NCBI RefSeq assembly: GCF_056712565.1
Contig: NZ_CM160072.1
Length of the DNA stretch: 64,000 nucleotides
Direction: 5' to 3' (one strand)
Shown here: positions 16,772-45,808 of the stretch, in pieces
Layout of the letters: every line of letters starts with the position of its first letter
How positions within the stretch are numbered: position 1 is the stretch's first letter
Position numbers and translations under genes: made by a program
Notes under the pieces: model-generated
Told to the model about the DNA's origin: nothing
Database searches by the model: none
The model's input: only the letters and a program-made list of their open reading frames with translations

Positions 16772-17338
16772 ATGAATATCACTGCTACTGTTCTTCTTGC
16801 GTTTGGTATGTCGATGGATGCCTTTGCTGCATCAATCGGTAAAGGTGCCACCCTCCATAAACCGAAATTTTCTGAAGCATTGCGAACCGGCCTTATTTTT
16901 GGTGCCGTCGAAACCCTGACGCCGCTGATCGGCTGGGGAATGGGCATGTTAGCCAGTCGGTTTGTCCTTGAATGGAACCACTGGATTGCGTTTGTGCTGC
17001 TGATATTTCTCGGCGGGCGAATGATTATTGAGGGTTTTCGTGGCGCAGATGATGAAGATGAAGAACCGCGCCGTCGACACGGTTTCTGGCTACTGGTAAC
17101 CACCGCGATTGCCACCAGCCTGGATGCCATGGCTGTGGGTGTTGGTCTTGCTTTCCTGCAGGTTAACATTATCGCGACCGCATTGGCCATTGGTTGTGCA
17201 ACCTTGATTATGTCGACATTAGGGATGATGGTTGGTCGCTTTATCGGCTCAATTATTGGGAAAAAAGCGGAAATTCTCGGCGGGCTGGTACTGATCGGTA
17301 TTGGCGTCCAGATCCTCTGGACGCACTTCCACGGTTAA
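16772..17338 (+). CDS. mntP: Mn2+ efflux pump MntP (YebN)
   Basis: ORF-track frame 16718..17338; recognised start [21 protein letters not shown] (16772); DUF204 repeats. Confidence 0.85.
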
Positions 17339-18144
17339 TAAGAACGCTGCCAGAGGTGAATATTAAAGTCCGTCTGGCAGTCGAACACTTCTTTTGCTGC
17401 CAGTGCTTGCCAGACTTCAGGCTTCGCACGCCAGGCAAACGGCGTCATCTGCAATAATGCGACGGCTTCATCACCGCGAAGACGCATCAGATAACACAAC
17501 TCATCACTCTGCTGTAATGTAAAACCTTTCAGTTGTTCTGCATGAGGTGCATGAAGATGTACTTCATTGTAAATCAGCCCCTTCAGCTCAATTAAGTGTC
17601 TCGGTCCCGGCGTGGCAGTAATGACCCAACCGCCGGGCTTCACTACTCGCACTAATTCTTCTGCTTTACACGGCGCGTAAATACGTATTATGGCGTCCAT
17701 ACTGGTATCGGAGAACGGCAAACGGTGGCTGGAAGCGACACAAAAAGTGACCTGCGGATAGCGTTTCGCCGCCGCTTTTATCGCTACCTTCGAGACATCC
17801 AGGCCAAACGTGGTGATTTCGGGCAACGCATCAGCAAATGCGTGTGTGTAATACCCTTCACCACAGCCAATATCCAGCACCGCCGCGGCCTTTTCATCAA
17901 GCCGTTCCCGCAATTGGCCGACAATTGCATCACGCAGCGGCTGATAATGTCCGGCATCTAAGAATGCGCGGCGTGCTTGCATCATTTCCGCGCTGTCGCC
18001 CGGATCACGAGACCGTTTATGCTGAACGGGCAGCAGATTGACATACCCTTCTTTCGCCATATCAAACTGATGTCGCTGGGGACAGATATAGCTGTTTTTT
18101 TCACGCGAAAGAGGCTGATGGCAAAGTGGACAGGAAAACGACAT
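17335..18144 (-). CDS. rlmA: 23S rRNA m1G745 methyltransferase
   Basis: 269-aa [31 protein letters not shown]... with N-terminal Zn-binding cysteines and SAM-binding motif [10 protein letters not shown]. Confidence 0.85.
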
Positions 18145-18235
18145 GACAACTCCGGCAGGATACTAAAGGCCGCAAGTGTAACGCGAATCATGCGGCGGGC
18201 AAATATCCGAACGACTGGAGCGAAGATAAAACAAA

Positions 18236-18262
18236 GTAAAAAGCCTCGCATTCGACGAGGCT
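18236..18262 (-). terminator. Rho-independent terminator after cspC
   Basis: On minus strand GCCTCGTCGAATGCGAGGC hairpin followed by TTTTT. Confidence 0.65.
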
Positions 18263-18309
18263 TTATAGCGAGATTGAAGCGTATTCACACTTCAGATCAG
18301 TGGATTCGA

Positions 18310-18519
18310 TCAGATAGCTGTTACGTTAACAGCTGCCGGACCTTTCTGACCGTCCTGAATTTCGAACTCAACGTTCTGACCTTCAGCCAGAGTTTTGAAA
18401 CCATTACCCTGGATAGCGGAGAAGTGTACGAACACATCTTTGCTGCCATCAGCCGGAGTAATGAAGCCAAAACCTTTAGACTCGTTGAACCACTTAACCT
18501 GACCTTTAATCTTTGCCAT
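18310..18519 (-). CDS. cspC: Cold-shock-family protein CspC
   Basis: 69-aa [40 protein letters not shown]... (RNP1/RNP2 motifs). Confidence 0.95.
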
Positions 18520-18531
18520 TTGAAAAATTCC

Positions 18532-18675
18532 TTAGATTGTTTTCTTCGCCCGCAGGCATAACATAGATAAAACTGACACATTACTGCATGAGGCACCAAT
18601 ATAAGGCTCGGCAGAGAAGCGGTATTCAACGTCAACGTGTTTACTCAGGACTTCTTTACTGAAAATGCCACACAT
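18532..18675 (-). CDS. yobF: Small protein YobF (47 aa), co-oriented immediately upstream of cspC
   Basis: Hand translation [47 protein letters not shown]; GAGGT Shine-Dalgarno upstream. Confidence 0.8.
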
Positions 18676-19345
18676 AAACAGAACTGTACCTCGTTTAACC
18701 CGAAATCTGTTATCACATACAACGTTAATTATGGCAAGCCATTTTTAAACATGTCTCGATCAGACGCACAAATCTCGATACGTCTTCCACTTTTTTGCAC
18801 ACTTATGCAACGGAATACGCGCCGATATATCATTGTGCTTAACCTTGCCAGTTCAGGCAGATACTTAAACTGGCGTATTTTTTCTAACATAGTTCAATAA
18901 GTTCAGTTGTTCCAGGCCAGTGAGAGAAGTTATTACATAGTGCGTGCAATATCACATTTTTTGCTATGCAATGAATAAAAAGTTATATCACTTTTTCTCA
19001 TAAAACAGTCAGTTAACGGCTATCAATTACCCTAAAGAGAAGTCAATCCCCAAAGGGATTGTAAATTTAAAATAAGAAAAATTGATGAATGAGCAAAAAA
19101 ATCAAGAGAGAAACGTTTCGCTAATAAATAATACCACGCTTAATCACAAATCCGATGTAAACATCCTAATAAATTAATGAGGGAAATATCTTTTTCTGAT
19201 ATCCCGTTACGCAAATTAATAATATGATAATTATTTGAAGTCAGACCAGAGTTTTAATTTGAAGCAGCTGCACCATGACAGTGCGTATAATCAGCATGAA
19301 TTGAGTAACCCTTCAACGACGGGGTTACTCAAGATTGAGGAAGGA

Positions 19346-19633
19346 TTATCGTTCGGCGACCAGACGAATAATATCTTCGTCTTCAACCGATTTTTGACTC
19401 TCAACTGTCTTTTTATCTGCTTTCTCAGGTTCGTTTGCTTCGCACAAACGACGTAACAGTGCATTTTGACGTTTTTGCTGATCCAGCAACGCCTCAAGCA
19501 GTTCAATCTGTTCGTTAGTCCGTGAACTGGCACGATTGATAAAAAACCACAAGATGAGCCCGATAAGAAGAACCACCACCGATACAACCAAAGACGCAAT
19601 GTTCATCACGCCTGAATTTACAACTTCGTTCAT
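19346..19633 (-). CDS. yebO: Small membrane protein YebO
   Basis: 95-aa ORF MNEVVNSGVMNIASLVVSVVVLLIGLILWFFINR...; single TM helix then charged tail. Confidence 0.75.
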   Translation of the reverse strand: MNEVVNSGVMNIASLVVSVVVLLIGLILWFFINRASSRTNEQIELLEALLDQQKRQNALLRRLCEANEPEKADKKTVESQKSVEDEDIIRLVAER

Positions 19634-19707: not shown

Positions 19708-19851
19708 TCACCACGGGATAAACTGGTTAAGGGCACAAATTCCGCTGAAAAATTGCACATCCTGATCGCACATCATGTTGAATACCTGCGCCCAAAGCAG
19801 CAAGCAAGCCAACACCACGACAACCAGAGCGACCCATCGAAACTTTTTCAC
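19708..19851 (-). CDS. mgrB: PhoQ-inhibiting small membrane peptide MgrB (47 aa, GTG start)
   Basis: Hand translation (V)[46 protein letters not shown]. Confidence 0.8.
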
Positions 19852-20350: not shown

Positions 20351-20385
20351 AAGAACCTGTCTGTTTGATATTCAGACAGGTTCTT
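20351..20385 (-). terminator. Hairpin downstream of kdgR (probable terminator)
   Basis: AAGAACCTGTCTG...CAGACAGGTTCTT inverted repeat. Confidence 0.45.
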
Positions 20386-34057: not shown

Positions 34058-34188
34058 TATTTTCCTCCCGCGCTAAAGATCACATAATCTTAACAAGAAT
34101 GTTAAAAAACGCTGGACTCAGACAGTAGAGTGTGTGTTATGGTTGACTATAAAGTCAGCGAAGGGAATGCTTCTGGCTTTTAACAGAT

Positions 34189-34291
34189 AAAAAGAGACCG
34201 AACACGATTCCTGTATTCGGTCCAGGGAAATGGCTCTTGGGAGAGAGCCGTGCGCTAAAAGTTGGCATTAATGCAGGCTTAGTTGCCTTGC
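34189..34291 (-). ncRNA. sdsR: SdsR (RyeB) sigma-S-dependent Hfq-binding sRNA
   Basis: Minus strand reads GCAAGGCAACUAAGCCUGCAUUAAUGCCAACUUUUAGCGCACGGCUCUCUCCCAAGAGCCAUUUCCCUGGACCGAAUACAGGAAUCGUGUUCGGUCUCUUUUU; sigma-S-like -10 (TCTATTCTT) just upstream. Confidence 0.8.
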
Positions 34292-34377
34292 TCTTTAAGA
34301 ATAGATGACGACGCCAGGTTTTCCAGTTTGCGTGCAAAATGGTCAATAAAAAGCGTGGTGGTCATCAGCTTAAATGT

Positions 34378-41867: not shown

Positions 41868-41910
41868 TATTTATTTTCAGCTGGGAAATCAACATCAGCA
41901 ATAAAGACAC

Positions 41911-41926
41911 GCGCAAACGTTTTCGT
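41911..41926. promoter_or_regulatory. PurR operator in purT promoter
   Basis: GCGCAAACGTTTTCGT matches PurR consensus aCGCAAACGTTTtCnT, about 40 nt upstream of purT ATG. Confidence 0.7.
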
Positions 41927-43162: not shown

Positions 43163-43197
43163 AAAAATGCCCGATCCTCGATCGGGCATTTTGACTT
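43163..43197. terminator. Bidirectional terminator between convergent purT and eda
   Basis: AAAAATGCCCGATC-ctc-GATCGGGCATTTTGACTTTT. Confidence 0.7.
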
Positions 43198-45687: not shown

Positions 45688-45808
45688 AAAGGCTCCTGAA
45701 ATTGAGTTGTCAGAGCAGGATGATTCACAACACGTTTCATTCAGAGGATTCATGACTGAAACGCCTGTAACCGGAGCTCATAGGGCAAAAACGTTTCAGT
45801 CAGTGTAA

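Follow-up and report, generated by a model that had tools for sequence, protein, structure and literature searches.

The 670-bp AT-rich gap between yebO and yobF-cspC in Escherichia coli probably joins the 3′ end of one message to a multi-promoter control region

In a B2-type Escherichia coli, the 670-bp gap between yebO and yobF probably holds no gene of its own and consists of the 3′ end of the yebO message together with the multi-promoter control region of yobF-cspC. The ~50 nt after yebO would be a 3′UTR with an 11-bp hairpin as the structure where the stable RNA ends, and the remaining ~600 bp would be an AT-rich yobF-cspC control region bound by H-NS and CRP.

Borders and composition of the gap

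All positions refer to the window, that is, the whole 64-kb stretch of DNA analysed, which matches E. coli ATCC 11775, NU14 and APEC O18 with 100% identity. Because yobF occupies 18532-18675 and yebO 19346-19633, both on the minus strand, positions 18676-19345 are exactly the 670-bp spacer; its E. coli K-12 counterpart measures 669 bp, with nothing annotated inside. The gene borders place the gap upstream of yobF-cspC and downstream of mgrB-yebO, as stated in a preliminary description made from the sequence. The same description called it the longest gene-free stretch and strongly AT-rich. Both statements are correct, the first for annotated coding sequences (the runner-up gaps are 428, 421 and 394 bp), the second with a GC content of 35.2% in the gap versus 50.3% in the window. 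Just 0.2% of 670-bp stretches in the window are as low in GC, making the gap essentially the lowest.

The upstream half of the gap in E. coli takes the place of a gene for an MBL-fold hydrolase that is found in other genera. A tblastn search for a relic of this gene in the E. coli gap returned nothing, and weak C-terminal relics were seen in the E. cloacae complex only. The features of the gap and its borders are listed in Table 1.

Table 1. Coordinates of genes and sequence features in and around the yobF-yebO gap
Feature	Position	Strand	Description
yobF	18532-18675	minus	
P1 5′UTR, short	18676-18702	minus	cold-box-like AACGAGGTACAG (18684-18695)
Core promoter P1	18707-18737	minus	TTGCCA (18732-18737), 17 nt, GATAAC (18709-18714); Shimada 2014, promoter scan, invariant across genera
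CRP-like 22-mer	18752-18773	minus	ATTTGTGCGTCTGATCGAGACA; hardly varies across 23 genera; CRP SELEX predicts yobF as a target
Conserved block D	18795-18810	minus	TTGCATAAGTGTGCAA, core GCATAAnTGTGC; includes the 18799 end
RNA 3′ end, leader-derived	18799	minus	Term-seq 'orphan', K-12 1907716, 125 nt upstream of yobF
Promoter-like block P2	18879-18915	minus	TGGAAC (18909-18914), 17-nt spacer, TATGTT (18886-18891), C at -13
Conserved block A	18946-18990	minus	TTATGC-N8-GCATAA and AAAGTGATATC in Citrobacter and Salmonella; degenerate in E. coli
Terminator-like hairpin, E. coli-specific	19044-19061	minus	CAATCCCTTTGGGGATTG, tail ACTTCTCTTT
Distal promoter-like block P3	19062-19105	minus	TTGCTC (19091-19096), 16-nt spacer, TATTTT (19069-19074)
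LacI-family operator-like palindrome	19108-19121	minus	GCGAAACGTTTCTC; 13/14 match to the rbsD operator core GCGAAACGTTTCGC
AT-rich filler, Escherichia-specific	19165-19296		no match outside the genus
yebO 3′UTR	19297-19345	minus	Term-seq 'primary' yebO 3′ ends (PMC7815308, supplementary file 1)
Terminal stem-loop	19301-19332	minus	perfect 11-bp stem, 10-nt loop, no U-tract
yebO	19346-19633	minus	

Promoter-like blocks at fixed distances from yobF

Comparison of 78 enterobacterial loci revealed three promoter-like blocks at fixed distances upstream of the yobF ATG: P1 at ~27-45 nt, P2 at ~204 nt and a distal module at ~390 nt. The stretch closest to the gene, 18676-18780, is conserved in 76/76 loci containing yobF. 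One option offered in the preliminary description, an H-NS-bound promoter region, is supported by published binding data: genomic SELEX located several peaks of RpoD holoenzyme (sigma70), an H-NS mark and the P1 hexamers in "the 670 bp spacer" (Shimada 2014), and CRP genomic SELEX predicts yobF as a target. The promoters yobFp1, yobFp2 and cspCp8 are cited from databases. P1 has what is expected of a sigma70 promoter, namely hexamers with a spacing of 16-18 nt and holoenzyme binding in RpoD genomic SELEX.

Overlapping assignments exist at P1, since the promoter scan also returned GAGACA-18-CATAAT and an extended -10 element, TGcCATAAT, places the -10 hexamer at 18728-18733. The CRP-like 22-mer, which resembles the CRP consensus in one good half-site only, is centred at -41.5 or -60.5 from two possible P1 starts. 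An E. coli reporter with an upstream fragment of 200-500 bp was inactive and did not respond to Mg2+, which counts against this promoter map.

Other regulators were considered for the conserved blocks. The gap has no acceptable GG-N10-GC site for a canonical sigma54 promoter; an RpoN SELEX paper reportedly mentions yobF. Pho-box, Fur, IHF, CytR and NtrC readings were dropped because the matches were partial or confined to some genera.

With a start near 18702-18721, P1 would yield a short cspA-like leader. The Rfam model RF01766 matched 18235-18695 with 135.6 bits (gathering score, 78), and the corresponding cspA-type leader starts at 18695 and runs through yobF into cspC. Only ~20 nt of this element lie within the gap, so the gap itself is not a long cspA-type leader.

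A conserved operator-like palindrome in the distal module

In an alignment of 21 genera, the family consensus of P3 is TTGAkG-17-CATTAT followed by TTTTGGTGCA; judged by this sequence, the block may function as a promoter with a start near 19062. The terminator-like hairpin next to it is not conserved in other Escherichia, and no Term-seq 3′ end is reported there. At ~-53, the distal module would be preceded by an RbsR-type LacI-family operator, the bases CGAAACGTTTC lying within the putative site. The palindrome is the sole copy in the window. Most of the 78 loci carry its motif, CGAAACGTTT, with few exceptions 383-478 bp upstream of the yobF ATG and in one orientation throughout. Identity with the rbsD/RbsR operator is 13/14 in E. 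coli, Citrobacter and Salmonella; elsewhere, it covers the left half and GTTT only.

That this palindrome is an RbsR operator that puts the distal promoter and the amount of CspC under ribose control across Enterobacteriaceae seems doubtful. An RbsR operator is expected to overlap the promoter or to lie just downstream of it, and the centre of the palindrome lies at ~-53 from the putative distal start, an unusual position for repressor action of the LacI type. On manual inspection of the alignment, a plus-strand alternative puts the palindrome at +1 with a poor -10. Among the papers searched, none links RbsR directly to cspC.

The palindrome might instead be bound by another LacI-family protein (Cra or PurR), or be conserved for reasons that involve no LacI-type factor, e.g. 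within an UP-like or H-NS nucleation element, a reading that is plausible without being probable. Most genera fit RbsR in the left half, GCGAAAC, only, with GTTTTTAT as the right half, and this asymmetry resembles the Cra-type site CTGAAACGTTTTTG upstream of edd in the same window; however, C precedes GAAAC in every locus carrying the motif, whereas the Cra-type site has T. As for PurR, its box in purT has the half-site GCAAAC, and just such C/G positions reportedly distinguish the RbsR motif from that of PurR (PMC4052901), which argues against this protein. RbsR genomic SELEX recorded 5 peaks only, with named targets in ribose and nucleotide metabolism, in favour of a protein other than RbsR, whereas the match to the rbsD operator in the E. 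coli, Citrobacter and Salmonella form points back to RbsR. The deeply conserved repressor-type site is a loose end in an otherwise charted region.

A stem-loop at the 3′ end of the yebO message

mgrB-yebO is a single transcript (PMC5861431), and Term-seq placed 'primary' yebO 3′ ends at K-12 1908212/1908213 (PMC7815308). K-12 Term-seq coordinates were moved onto the window by exact string match, and the transfer is validated by the cspC terminator, the end of which falls at 18237, directly after the predicted terminator. On the window, the yebO mRNA ends at 19297 (LB, OD 0.4 and 2.0) or 19298 (M63), 3-4 nt past the stem of a hairpin.

The hairpin, TTGAGTAACCC-N10-GGGTTACTCAA, has its arms at 19301-19311 and 19322-19332, begins 14 nt past the yebO stop codon and contains 4 G-C pairs in its stem (-17 kcal/mol). 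The preliminary description had rightly reported it at ~19300-19330, just 3′ of yebO and without a T-tract, and had given a stem of 9 bp where the actual length is 11 bp. Folding of the RNA gave z values of -3.4 (minus strand) and -4.9 (plus strand). The hairpin belongs to a set of ~9 distinct perfect stem-loops with at least 11 bp in the 64 kb; 20 shuffles together produced 2. Directly past the stem, the yebO strand reads TTCATGCT over 8 nt; the tail, also given as AAUUCAUG, is not U-rich, and a terminator scan made no call.

The stem is preserved in three other Escherichia lineages. Covariation analysis, proposed earlier as a check, was uninformative within Escherichia because there is almost no variation in the 10 core pairs: double compensatory changes were absent, and the sole changed pair was the outer one, from T-A to C-G in E. 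albertii. The hairpin occurs at one place per genome in 5422/5426 E. coli genomes; being single-copy in these 5422, it is not a repeated extragenic element (REP, BIME or MITE).

Analogous hairpins of other genera were compared instead. For the 70 nt that follow yebO in 46 distinct short-gap loci, the median folding z was -3.1, compared with -0.28 in a control segment (Wilcoxon p = 3e-10), and in 96% of these loci at least 7 consecutive pairs formed after yebO in sequences unrelated between genera; these loci, like the 78 enterobacterial ones, are phylogenetically related, and the counts overstate independence. The folding of these non-homologous sequences argues that a hairpin in this position is selected, not accidental. 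Of the 46 post-yebO hairpins, only 4 carry 5 or more T in the 8-nt tail, and T-rich tails lie behind few orthologous hairpins, e.g. in C. koseri and at L024/L038.

Because the hairpin lacks a U-tract, we infer that it is an exonuclease barrier and not a classical intrinsic terminator. It would work mainly against 3′-exonucleases, defining and stabilising the end of the mgrB-yebO transcript, and the stable 3′ end is indeed found at the hairpin base. Polymerase release would occur further downstream, probably by Rho: direct RNA-seq gave a Rho score of 3.55 in yebO (p = 2.6e-26, at K-12 1908371). The case for Rho is shaky, since C is not abundant in the minus-strand RNA around yebO, which has no C>G skew and no evident rut-like stretch, and since a published yebO reporter fusion fell, not rose, in a rhoR66S mutant.

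It is conceivable, although somewhat unlikely, that RNA polymerase is stopped by the hairpin itself, acting as a non-canonical, factor-independent terminator. Its stem is stable and the RNA ends right behind it in three conditions, but this end is 3-4 nt from the stem, whereas the RNA ends of intrinsic terminators are expected 7-9 nt away, within the U-tract. The loop of 10 nt also speaks against a terminator. T-rich tails such as that of C. koseri would suit one, but the E. coli tail does not, and U-rich tails are rare among the orthologous hairpins. The next reported minus-strand 3′ end downstream of yebO is the one at 18799 and the rho-mutant reporter gave no confirmation of Rho termination, both consistent with release at the hairpin; against this stands the significant Rho read-through score in yebO. 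We retain the exonuclease barrier as the preferred reading.

P2 and the RNA 3′ end at 18799

In its strict form, the P2 pattern TTGAGCTATGGT lies at a fixed 212-223 bp upstream of the ATG in 39/78 loci from many genera. P2, with a sigmaS-like C at -13, would start near 18879 and yield a leader of ~204 nt, part of which would end early, at 18799, in stationary phase. This agrees with a Salmonella TSS implying a 5′UTR of 182-390 nt; Tn5 insertions located 172-181 nt downstream of that TSS, and hence within the 5′UTR, inactivate the operon's function. In the promoter scan, both P2 and P3 fell below the consensus threshold, and scan matches were no more numerous than in shuffles.

The core of block D is located 132-134 bp upstream of the ATG in 52/78 loci. 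The 18799 end falls inside this conserved palindrome, with no obvious terminator, ~81 nt from the putative P2 start. It was recorded in one of three growth conditions (stationary phase), with a Term-seq score of 264852; the yebO end scores 46490 in that table. A table entry of this kind requires a dRNA-seq TSS upstream of the end and downstream of the yebO stop, which is consistent with P2. Most simply, the RNA end is that of a leader fragment.

The suggestion of a long structured cspC leader may be correct in length, in that the conserved P2 would give ~204 nt, but not in structure. Between P2 and block D, dinucleotide-shuffle z values in 77 loci averaged -0.66 versus -0.46 for the control, no difference, and the 70 nt between the conserved blocks could not be aligned between genera.

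An unannotated sRNA had also been suggested. An independent trans-acting sRNA, whether ~81 nt long (from P2 at ~18879 down to the 18799 end) or ~263 nt long and starting at the distal module, is quite improbable. Its 3′ end is discrete and fairly abundant, but was seen in a single condition and carries neither a terminator hairpin nor a U-tail, whereas an sRNA gene should combine a promoter of its own with a defined terminator, and the part in between should be conserved in sequence or structure. The TSS demanded by the Term-seq authors' filter is in keeping with an sRNA promoter, but the same promoter is plausibly the main yobF-cspC start in Salmonella. Likewise, blocks B and D on either side are preserved throughout the family, but what lies between them is unalignable and folds at background level, and no Rfam family matches. 

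Small open reading frames in the gap

As previously described, the frames in the gap are shorter than 60 aa or antisense. The further suggestion of an unannotated small ORF did not hold: when the frames of 20 aa or more were traced through four other Escherichia sequences (K-12, E. albertii and two further lineages), each was interrupted in one or more of them, and none is conserved. Apart from the initial ~20 nt of the cspA-like leader, Rfam and tRNA searches found no matches in the gap. Despite several frames of 20-53 aa, and YobF, MgrB and YobH in or next to the gap with YobI elsewhere in the window, a small protein gene missed by annotation is hardly credible, given the frameshifts or stops that all frames meet within the genus, the break of the 53-aa frame already in K-12 by an A6/A7 run, the shifts of the frame across the palindrome between E. 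coli, Citrobacter, Salmonella and other genera (manual translation of the alignment), and the available part of one ribosome-profiling study's supplementary text, which lists no novel ORF at K-12 1907600-1908199.

Discussion

The gap is ordinary and largely known: as found, it is a textbook regulatory spacer of little import, the main features of which can already be found in public data from genomic SELEX and Term-seq and in promoter databases. A yobF-cspC 5′ region and a yebO 3′UTR, with no independent transcript or translated ORF, had been named beforehand as the outcome that would speak against anything further in the gap, and this is nearly what we obtained, the exception being the short RNA end at 18799. 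The region nonetheless offers a worked example of how a hairpin without a T-tract can be a selected 3′-end structure, its sequence replaced repeatedly and its position never lost, and of how an AT-rich gap that looks "empty" can be an array of closely spaced promoters conserved across a bacterial family.

CspC governs programmes of stress response, virulence and carbon use, and in ageing colonies it is a hotspot of mutation. One screen in Salmonella yielded both rbsR and cspC mutants, with a shared succinate-growth phenotype, and RbsR was called 'pleiotropic'. This shared phenotype is what makes the RbsR-like site interesting: an RbsR operator, if real, would provide a direct mechanism for it and for the pleiotropy of RbsR, and a functional site of this type would add a sugar input to the control of CspC. 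In a weaker variant of such a novel reading, the ~81-nt RNA ending at 18799 might be a stationary-phase riboregulator.

Comparison with known systems

The gap palindrome shares with the rbsD operator the core GCGAAACGTTTC, identical over 12 bp, the 13/14 match overall and the RbsR-type C before GAAAC. The palindrome upstream of rbsD, TCAGCGAAACGTTTCGCTGA, is a perfect 20-bp palindrome 12 bp upstream of the rbsD start codon, whereas the gap site is asymmetric and lies ~53 bp upstream of a putative start and ~440 bp from the nearest ORF.

The yebO hairpin resembles an intrinsic terminator in being a stem-loop directly downstream of a gene, and differs in having no U run 3′ of the stem. The cspC terminator in the same window (18240-18264) is likewise a stem-loop that directly follows a stop codon and has a mapped RNA end immediately 3′ of it, but it has a 5-nt loop, a TTTTT tail and an end within the U-tract, in contrast to the 10-nt loop and the tail of the yebO hairpin. 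E. coli 3′-end mapping by Dar and Sorek in 2018 is said to have revealed stem-loops at the processed 3′ ends of Rho-terminated mRNAs. The yebO end is like these in its stable hairpin without a U-tract, in an end a few nt past the base and in the Rho read-through signal reported for the upstream gene; it differs in the response of the yebO reporter in the rho mutant, which was not as expected, and in having no evident C-rich rut-like stretch.

The yobF-cspC mRNA fits the whole model of the cspA 5′UTR thermoregulator (RF01766), with its cold-box-like 5′ end; where cspA has an untranslated leader, however, yobF-cspC carries the small ORF yobF. Finally, the spacer resembles H-NS-marked multi-promoter spacers such as the 847-bp mngB-cydA spacer (Shimada 2014), being AT-rich and several hundred bp long, with more than one holoenzyme peak and one downstream operon. 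It is distinguished from mngB-cydA by a promoter spacing that is fixed family-wide and by an upstream half that replaces the MBL-fold hydrolase gene.

Position and composition of the spacer

The interval 18676-19345 corresponds exactly to the yobF-yebO spacer in the gene map, between yobF-cspC and mgrB-yebO. As the preliminary description stated, no longer interval free of CDS exists in the window (670 bp; the next three are 428, 421, and 394 bp). It is also the most AT-rich stretch, with 35.2% GC versus 50.3% for the whole window, a value equally low in only 0.2% of 670-bp stretches. A 1-kb stretch around it matches E. coli ATCC 11775, NU14, and APEC O18 at 100% identity; of 5426 complete E. 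coli genomes, 5407 carry it at 95-100%. K-12 has the same gene order, with no feature annotated in its yobF-yebO interval, which is 669 rather than 670 bp because of a length difference in the A-run at 18790-18795 (A6 here, A7 in both K-12 and E. albertii). The analysis below indicates that the spacer is ordinary and, for the most part, documented.

Elsewhere in the window, two convergent sRNAs, SraC/RyeA on the plus strand and SdsR/RyeB on the minus strand, lie at 34185-34329 within the 394-bp pphA-yebY interval. The RefSeq feature table lists no RNA features for this region; thus, intervals that are gene-free by CDS only may contain RNA genes.

Features in and around the yobF-yebO spacer (window positions; "before ATG" means upstream of the yobF start codon)
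Feature	Position	Strand	Sequence or remark
rlmA	17335-18144	minus	
cspC	18310-18519	minus	
yobF	18532-18675	minus	
Core region	18676-18780		almost invariant across genera
P1, first reading	18732-18737 / 18709-18714		TTGCCA / GATAAC; promoter of Shimada 2014
P1, second reading			overlapping extended -10 TGcCATAAT; promoter scan
CRP-like 22-mer	18752-18773		centre at -60.5 (first P1 reading) or -41.5 (second)
Block D	132-134 bp before ATG in 52/78 loci		core GCATAAnTGTGC
Block B (P2)	212-223 bp before ATG, many genera		consensus CTGGACGAA..GAA…TTGAGCTATGGTAAAAAAGT
P2 in E. coli	18909-18914 / 18886-18891		TGGAAC / TATGTT; inferred start ~18879
Block A			common to Escherichia, Citrobacter, Salmonella
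Distal module (P3)			consensus AGCGAAACGTTTTTAT-TGCC…GGCA-cTGTCATcAAAtTTTCATTATTTTGGTGCA; operator, then TTGAkG-17-CATTAT
Distal module in E. coli			TTGCTC-16-TATTTT; inferred start ~19062; operator centre ~-53
Palindrome	19108-19121		GCGAAACGTTTCTC; sole GAAACGTTTC of the window
MBL-fold hydrolase gene in two other enterobacterial loci	L009 3308-4303; L029 3310-4317		position equivalent to window ~19165-19330
Hairpin behind yebO	arms 19301-19311, 19322-19332	minus (yebO strand)	TTGAGTAACCC-N10-GGGTTACTCAA
yebO	19346-19633	minus	
mgrB	19708-19851	minus	
PurR-box-like site	about 40 bp before purT		ACGCGCAAACGTTTTCGTTT
Cra-type site	zwf-edd spacer	minus	CTGAAACGTTTTTG

The hairpin behind yebO is the 3' terminus of the mgrB-yebO mRNA

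A perfect 9-bp hairpin just 3' of yebO had been described from the sequence. The hairpin exists, with a longer stem of 11 bp, and inspection of the sequence confirmed that no T-tract follows it. On the yebO strand it folds with z = -3.4, and it is among about nine distinct perfect stem-loops of at least 11 bp in the 64 kb; 20 shuffles gave two in total. To locate published 3' ends, we moved them onto the window by exact string match of the flanking 61-mer given in PMC7815308. The "primary" yebO 3' end of Adams et al. 2021 (PMC7815308, supplementary file 1), at K-12 1908212 (LB, OD 0.4 and 2.0) or 1908213 (M63), falls at 19297 or 19298, 3-4 nt beyond the last paired base. As a control for the transfer, the published cspC end fell at 18237, just past the canonical cspC terminator called by the scan. 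Since mgrB and yebO are carried on one transcript (PMC5861431), these ends indicate that the hairpin is the 3' terminus of the mgrB-yebO mRNA.

A REP-type repeat was ruled out, as the hairpin is single-copy in 5422 E. coli genomes. Two of the roughly eight other such stem-loops in the window were placed, each just past gene ends: 20352-20384, between the convergent yobH and kdgR, and 43164-43192, after purT. Both are probably ordinary terminators.

Sequence homologous to the hairpin was found only in Escherichia among the enterobacterial loci compared. The core stem is nearly invariant there, and the proposed covariation check, run within this genus, revealed no double compensatory changes; the outer T-A pair is C-G in E. 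albertii, which also lengthens the stem. We analyzed the analogous position in 46 distinct loci, drawn from Citrobacter, Salmonella, Klebsiella, Raoultella, the E. cloacae complex, Yokenella, Trabulsiella, Pluralibacter, and others. The 70 nt directly behind yebO had a median folding z of -3.1 (z < -2 in 70%; at least 7 consecutive pairs in 96%), versus -0.28 for a control segment 90 nt further on (Wilcoxon p = 3e-10). Because these loci fold strongly, the hairpin sequences of different genera are unrelated, and a tail with 5 or more T among its 8 nt occurs in just 4 of the 46, the conserved design after yebO is, judged by analogy, a strong stem-loop lacking a U-tract. For selection on the hairpin, the analogous loci are stronger evidence than the Escherichia homologues.

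Such a hairpin would define and protect the mRNA end once polymerase has been released at a point beyond it. The main rival explanation is that it acts as a non-canonical intrinsic terminator. For release downstream of the hairpin, Rho is favored by its significant read-through score in yebO (3.55), whereas the yebO fusion went down, not up, in a rho mutant, as reported by the same authors (Adams et al. 2021, PMC7815308), and no C-rich skew was seen around yebO; on this divided evidence, we infer that release could be Rho-dependent.

The remainder of the spacer is promoter DNA

Outside the hairpin, the gap is promoter DNA, already known at low resolution. The suggestion of an H-NS-bound promoter region agrees with Shimada et al. 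2014 (PMC3946193), whose table marks this spacer for H-NS and gives TTGCCA-17-GATAAC as a promoter in it. In addition, yobF is a predicted target in CRP genomic SELEX, yobFp1, yobFp2, and cspCp8 are database promoters to which a 2026 paper refers, and OxyS and CyaR target a short 5'UTR near the yobF ribosome-binding site. An RpoN/NtrC genomic SELEX paper names yobF ten times (PMC8743547), and papers on sigmaS and minor-sigma profiling name yobF and yebO (PMC3141248, PMC5493296). No canonical sigma54 GG-N10-GC site was found in the gap.

Using YebO as bait, we collected 80 loci across Enterobacteriaceae and counted block positions over 78 of them. The yebO-yobF distance is bimodal: short gaps mostly measure ~590-750 bp, with an outlier of 441 bp, and long ones ~1455-1585 bp. 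In the long class, a gene for an MBL-fold hydrolase (Pfam Lactamase_B_2; 331-335 aa) begins 17-20 bp after yebO. It is present in about half of the genera and absent from Escherichia, Citrobacter, Salmonella, and Klebsiella; tblastn detected a weak C-terminal relic in the E. cloacae complex (E = 0.014-0.18) and none in the E. coli gap. Both classes share the same organization upstream of yobF, in which the spacing between blocks is fixed and the intervening sequence variable. The P2 consensus can be read as TGGACG-17-TATGGT; its C at -13 is typical of promoters preferred by sigmaS. In the distal module, most of the 78 loci carry CGAAACGTTT, invariably in one orientation and, with few exceptions, 383-478 bp before ATG. 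In a crude comparison of E. coli genomes, 48-mers over the operator and over P2 were identical in 2992/5113 and 3136/5395 matching genomes, respectively, and a control 48-mer from Escherichia-specific filler in only 319/5324. An E. coli-specific terminator-like hairpin, CAATCCCTTTGGGGATTG, with a T-rich tail lies at 19044-19061, exactly at the inferred distal start; the Term-seq list has no 3' end there.

The core region also contains the cold-box-like start of a cspA-type leader. The Rfam RF01766 match (18235-18695, 135.6 bits) starts, in the direction of transcription, at 18695, so no more than the final ~20 nt of the gap belong to this cspA-homologous leader. The yobF ORF sits within the part aligning to the untranslated cspA leader.

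An upstream start and an RNA ending at 18799

In Salmonella 4/74, the SalComMac TSS of yobF(yobJ)-cspC is at 1893683; of three Tn5 insertions, two, called 5'UTR, map 172 and 181 nt downstream of this TSS, and the one at 1893137 falls in cspC (PMC10965054). Gene lengths and insertions confine the 5'UTR to 182-390 nt, which excludes P1 as the Salmonella start and fits P2 (~204 nt). For E. coli, one of three Term-seq condition tables contains a minus-strand 3' end labelled "orphan", K-12 1907716 (PMC7815308), or 18799, 125 nt upstream of yobF and directly 5' of the A-run at 18790-18795. The table filter kept only ends with a dRNA-seq TSS between the previous stop codon and the end itself; therefore, a minus-strand start must lie within the gap, and an RNA started at P2 would be ~81 nt long. 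This end scores 264852, more than the yebO end does there (46490), and the list contains no further 3' ends on either strand in K-12 1907600-1908199. Within yobF, Term-seq reports another end (K-12 1907479, window 18563), which precedes the cspC start codon by 44 nt.

The 18799 end lies inside block D and lacks a terminator, and the 70-nt stretch that separates block B from block D is unalignable between genera and folds no better than shuffles (mean z -0.66 versus -0.46 for the control). We therefore treated the RNA as a leader fragment arising by attenuation, by a roadblock at P1-bound proteins, or by processing; the same properties make an independent sRNA, which had also been suggested, quite improbable. 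Of the long structured cspC leader proposed earlier, the length was partly upheld through P2, and the structure was not.

The gap contains no coding gene, contrary to the suggestion of an unannotated small ORF. No ORF of 20 aa or more stays intact throughout K-12, E. albertii, and two further Escherichia lineages: each meets stops or frameshifts in one or more of these, and the A6/A7 run already interrupts the largest, of 53 aa, in K-12. The supplementary text of one ribosome-profiling study has no entries in K-12 1907600-1908199, and no Rfam family or tRNA was found in the gap beyond the RF01766 leader start.

A palindrome resembling the RbsR operator

The one unexplained element of the gap is the palindrome in the distal module. 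In a Salmonella screen, insertions in rbsR, cspC, and the yobF-cspC 5'UTR (4/74 coordinates 1893137-1893683 and 4118507) share a succinate-growth phenotype; the authors ascribe the RbsR effect to RpoS and mention neither a site at cspC nor a direct RbsR-cspC link (PMC10965054), and we found no such link in the literature searched. The position at ~-53 is atypical for a repressor, and in genera beyond the Escherichia/Citrobacter/Salmonella clade the fit to RbsR is limited to the left half-site. We consider it doubtful that RbsR acts here, and present the palindrome as a candidate site by sequence likeness, a lead rather than a finding. The two other LacI-family-type sites with AAACGTTT noted in the window, at 41907-41926 and 45786-45799, are the PurR-box-like site before purT and the Cra-type site in the zwf-edd spacer; they served solely for contrast.

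The palindrome shares 13 of 14 positions with the core of TCAGCGAAACGTTTCGCTGA, a perfect palindrome that in K-12 ends 12 bp before the rbsD start codon and is the established RbsR operator (Mauzy & Hermodson 1992). Every locus with the motif has the C before GAAAC that marks the RbsR type, in contrast to the PurR box of purT, GCAAACGTTTTC, and the Cra-type site before edd.
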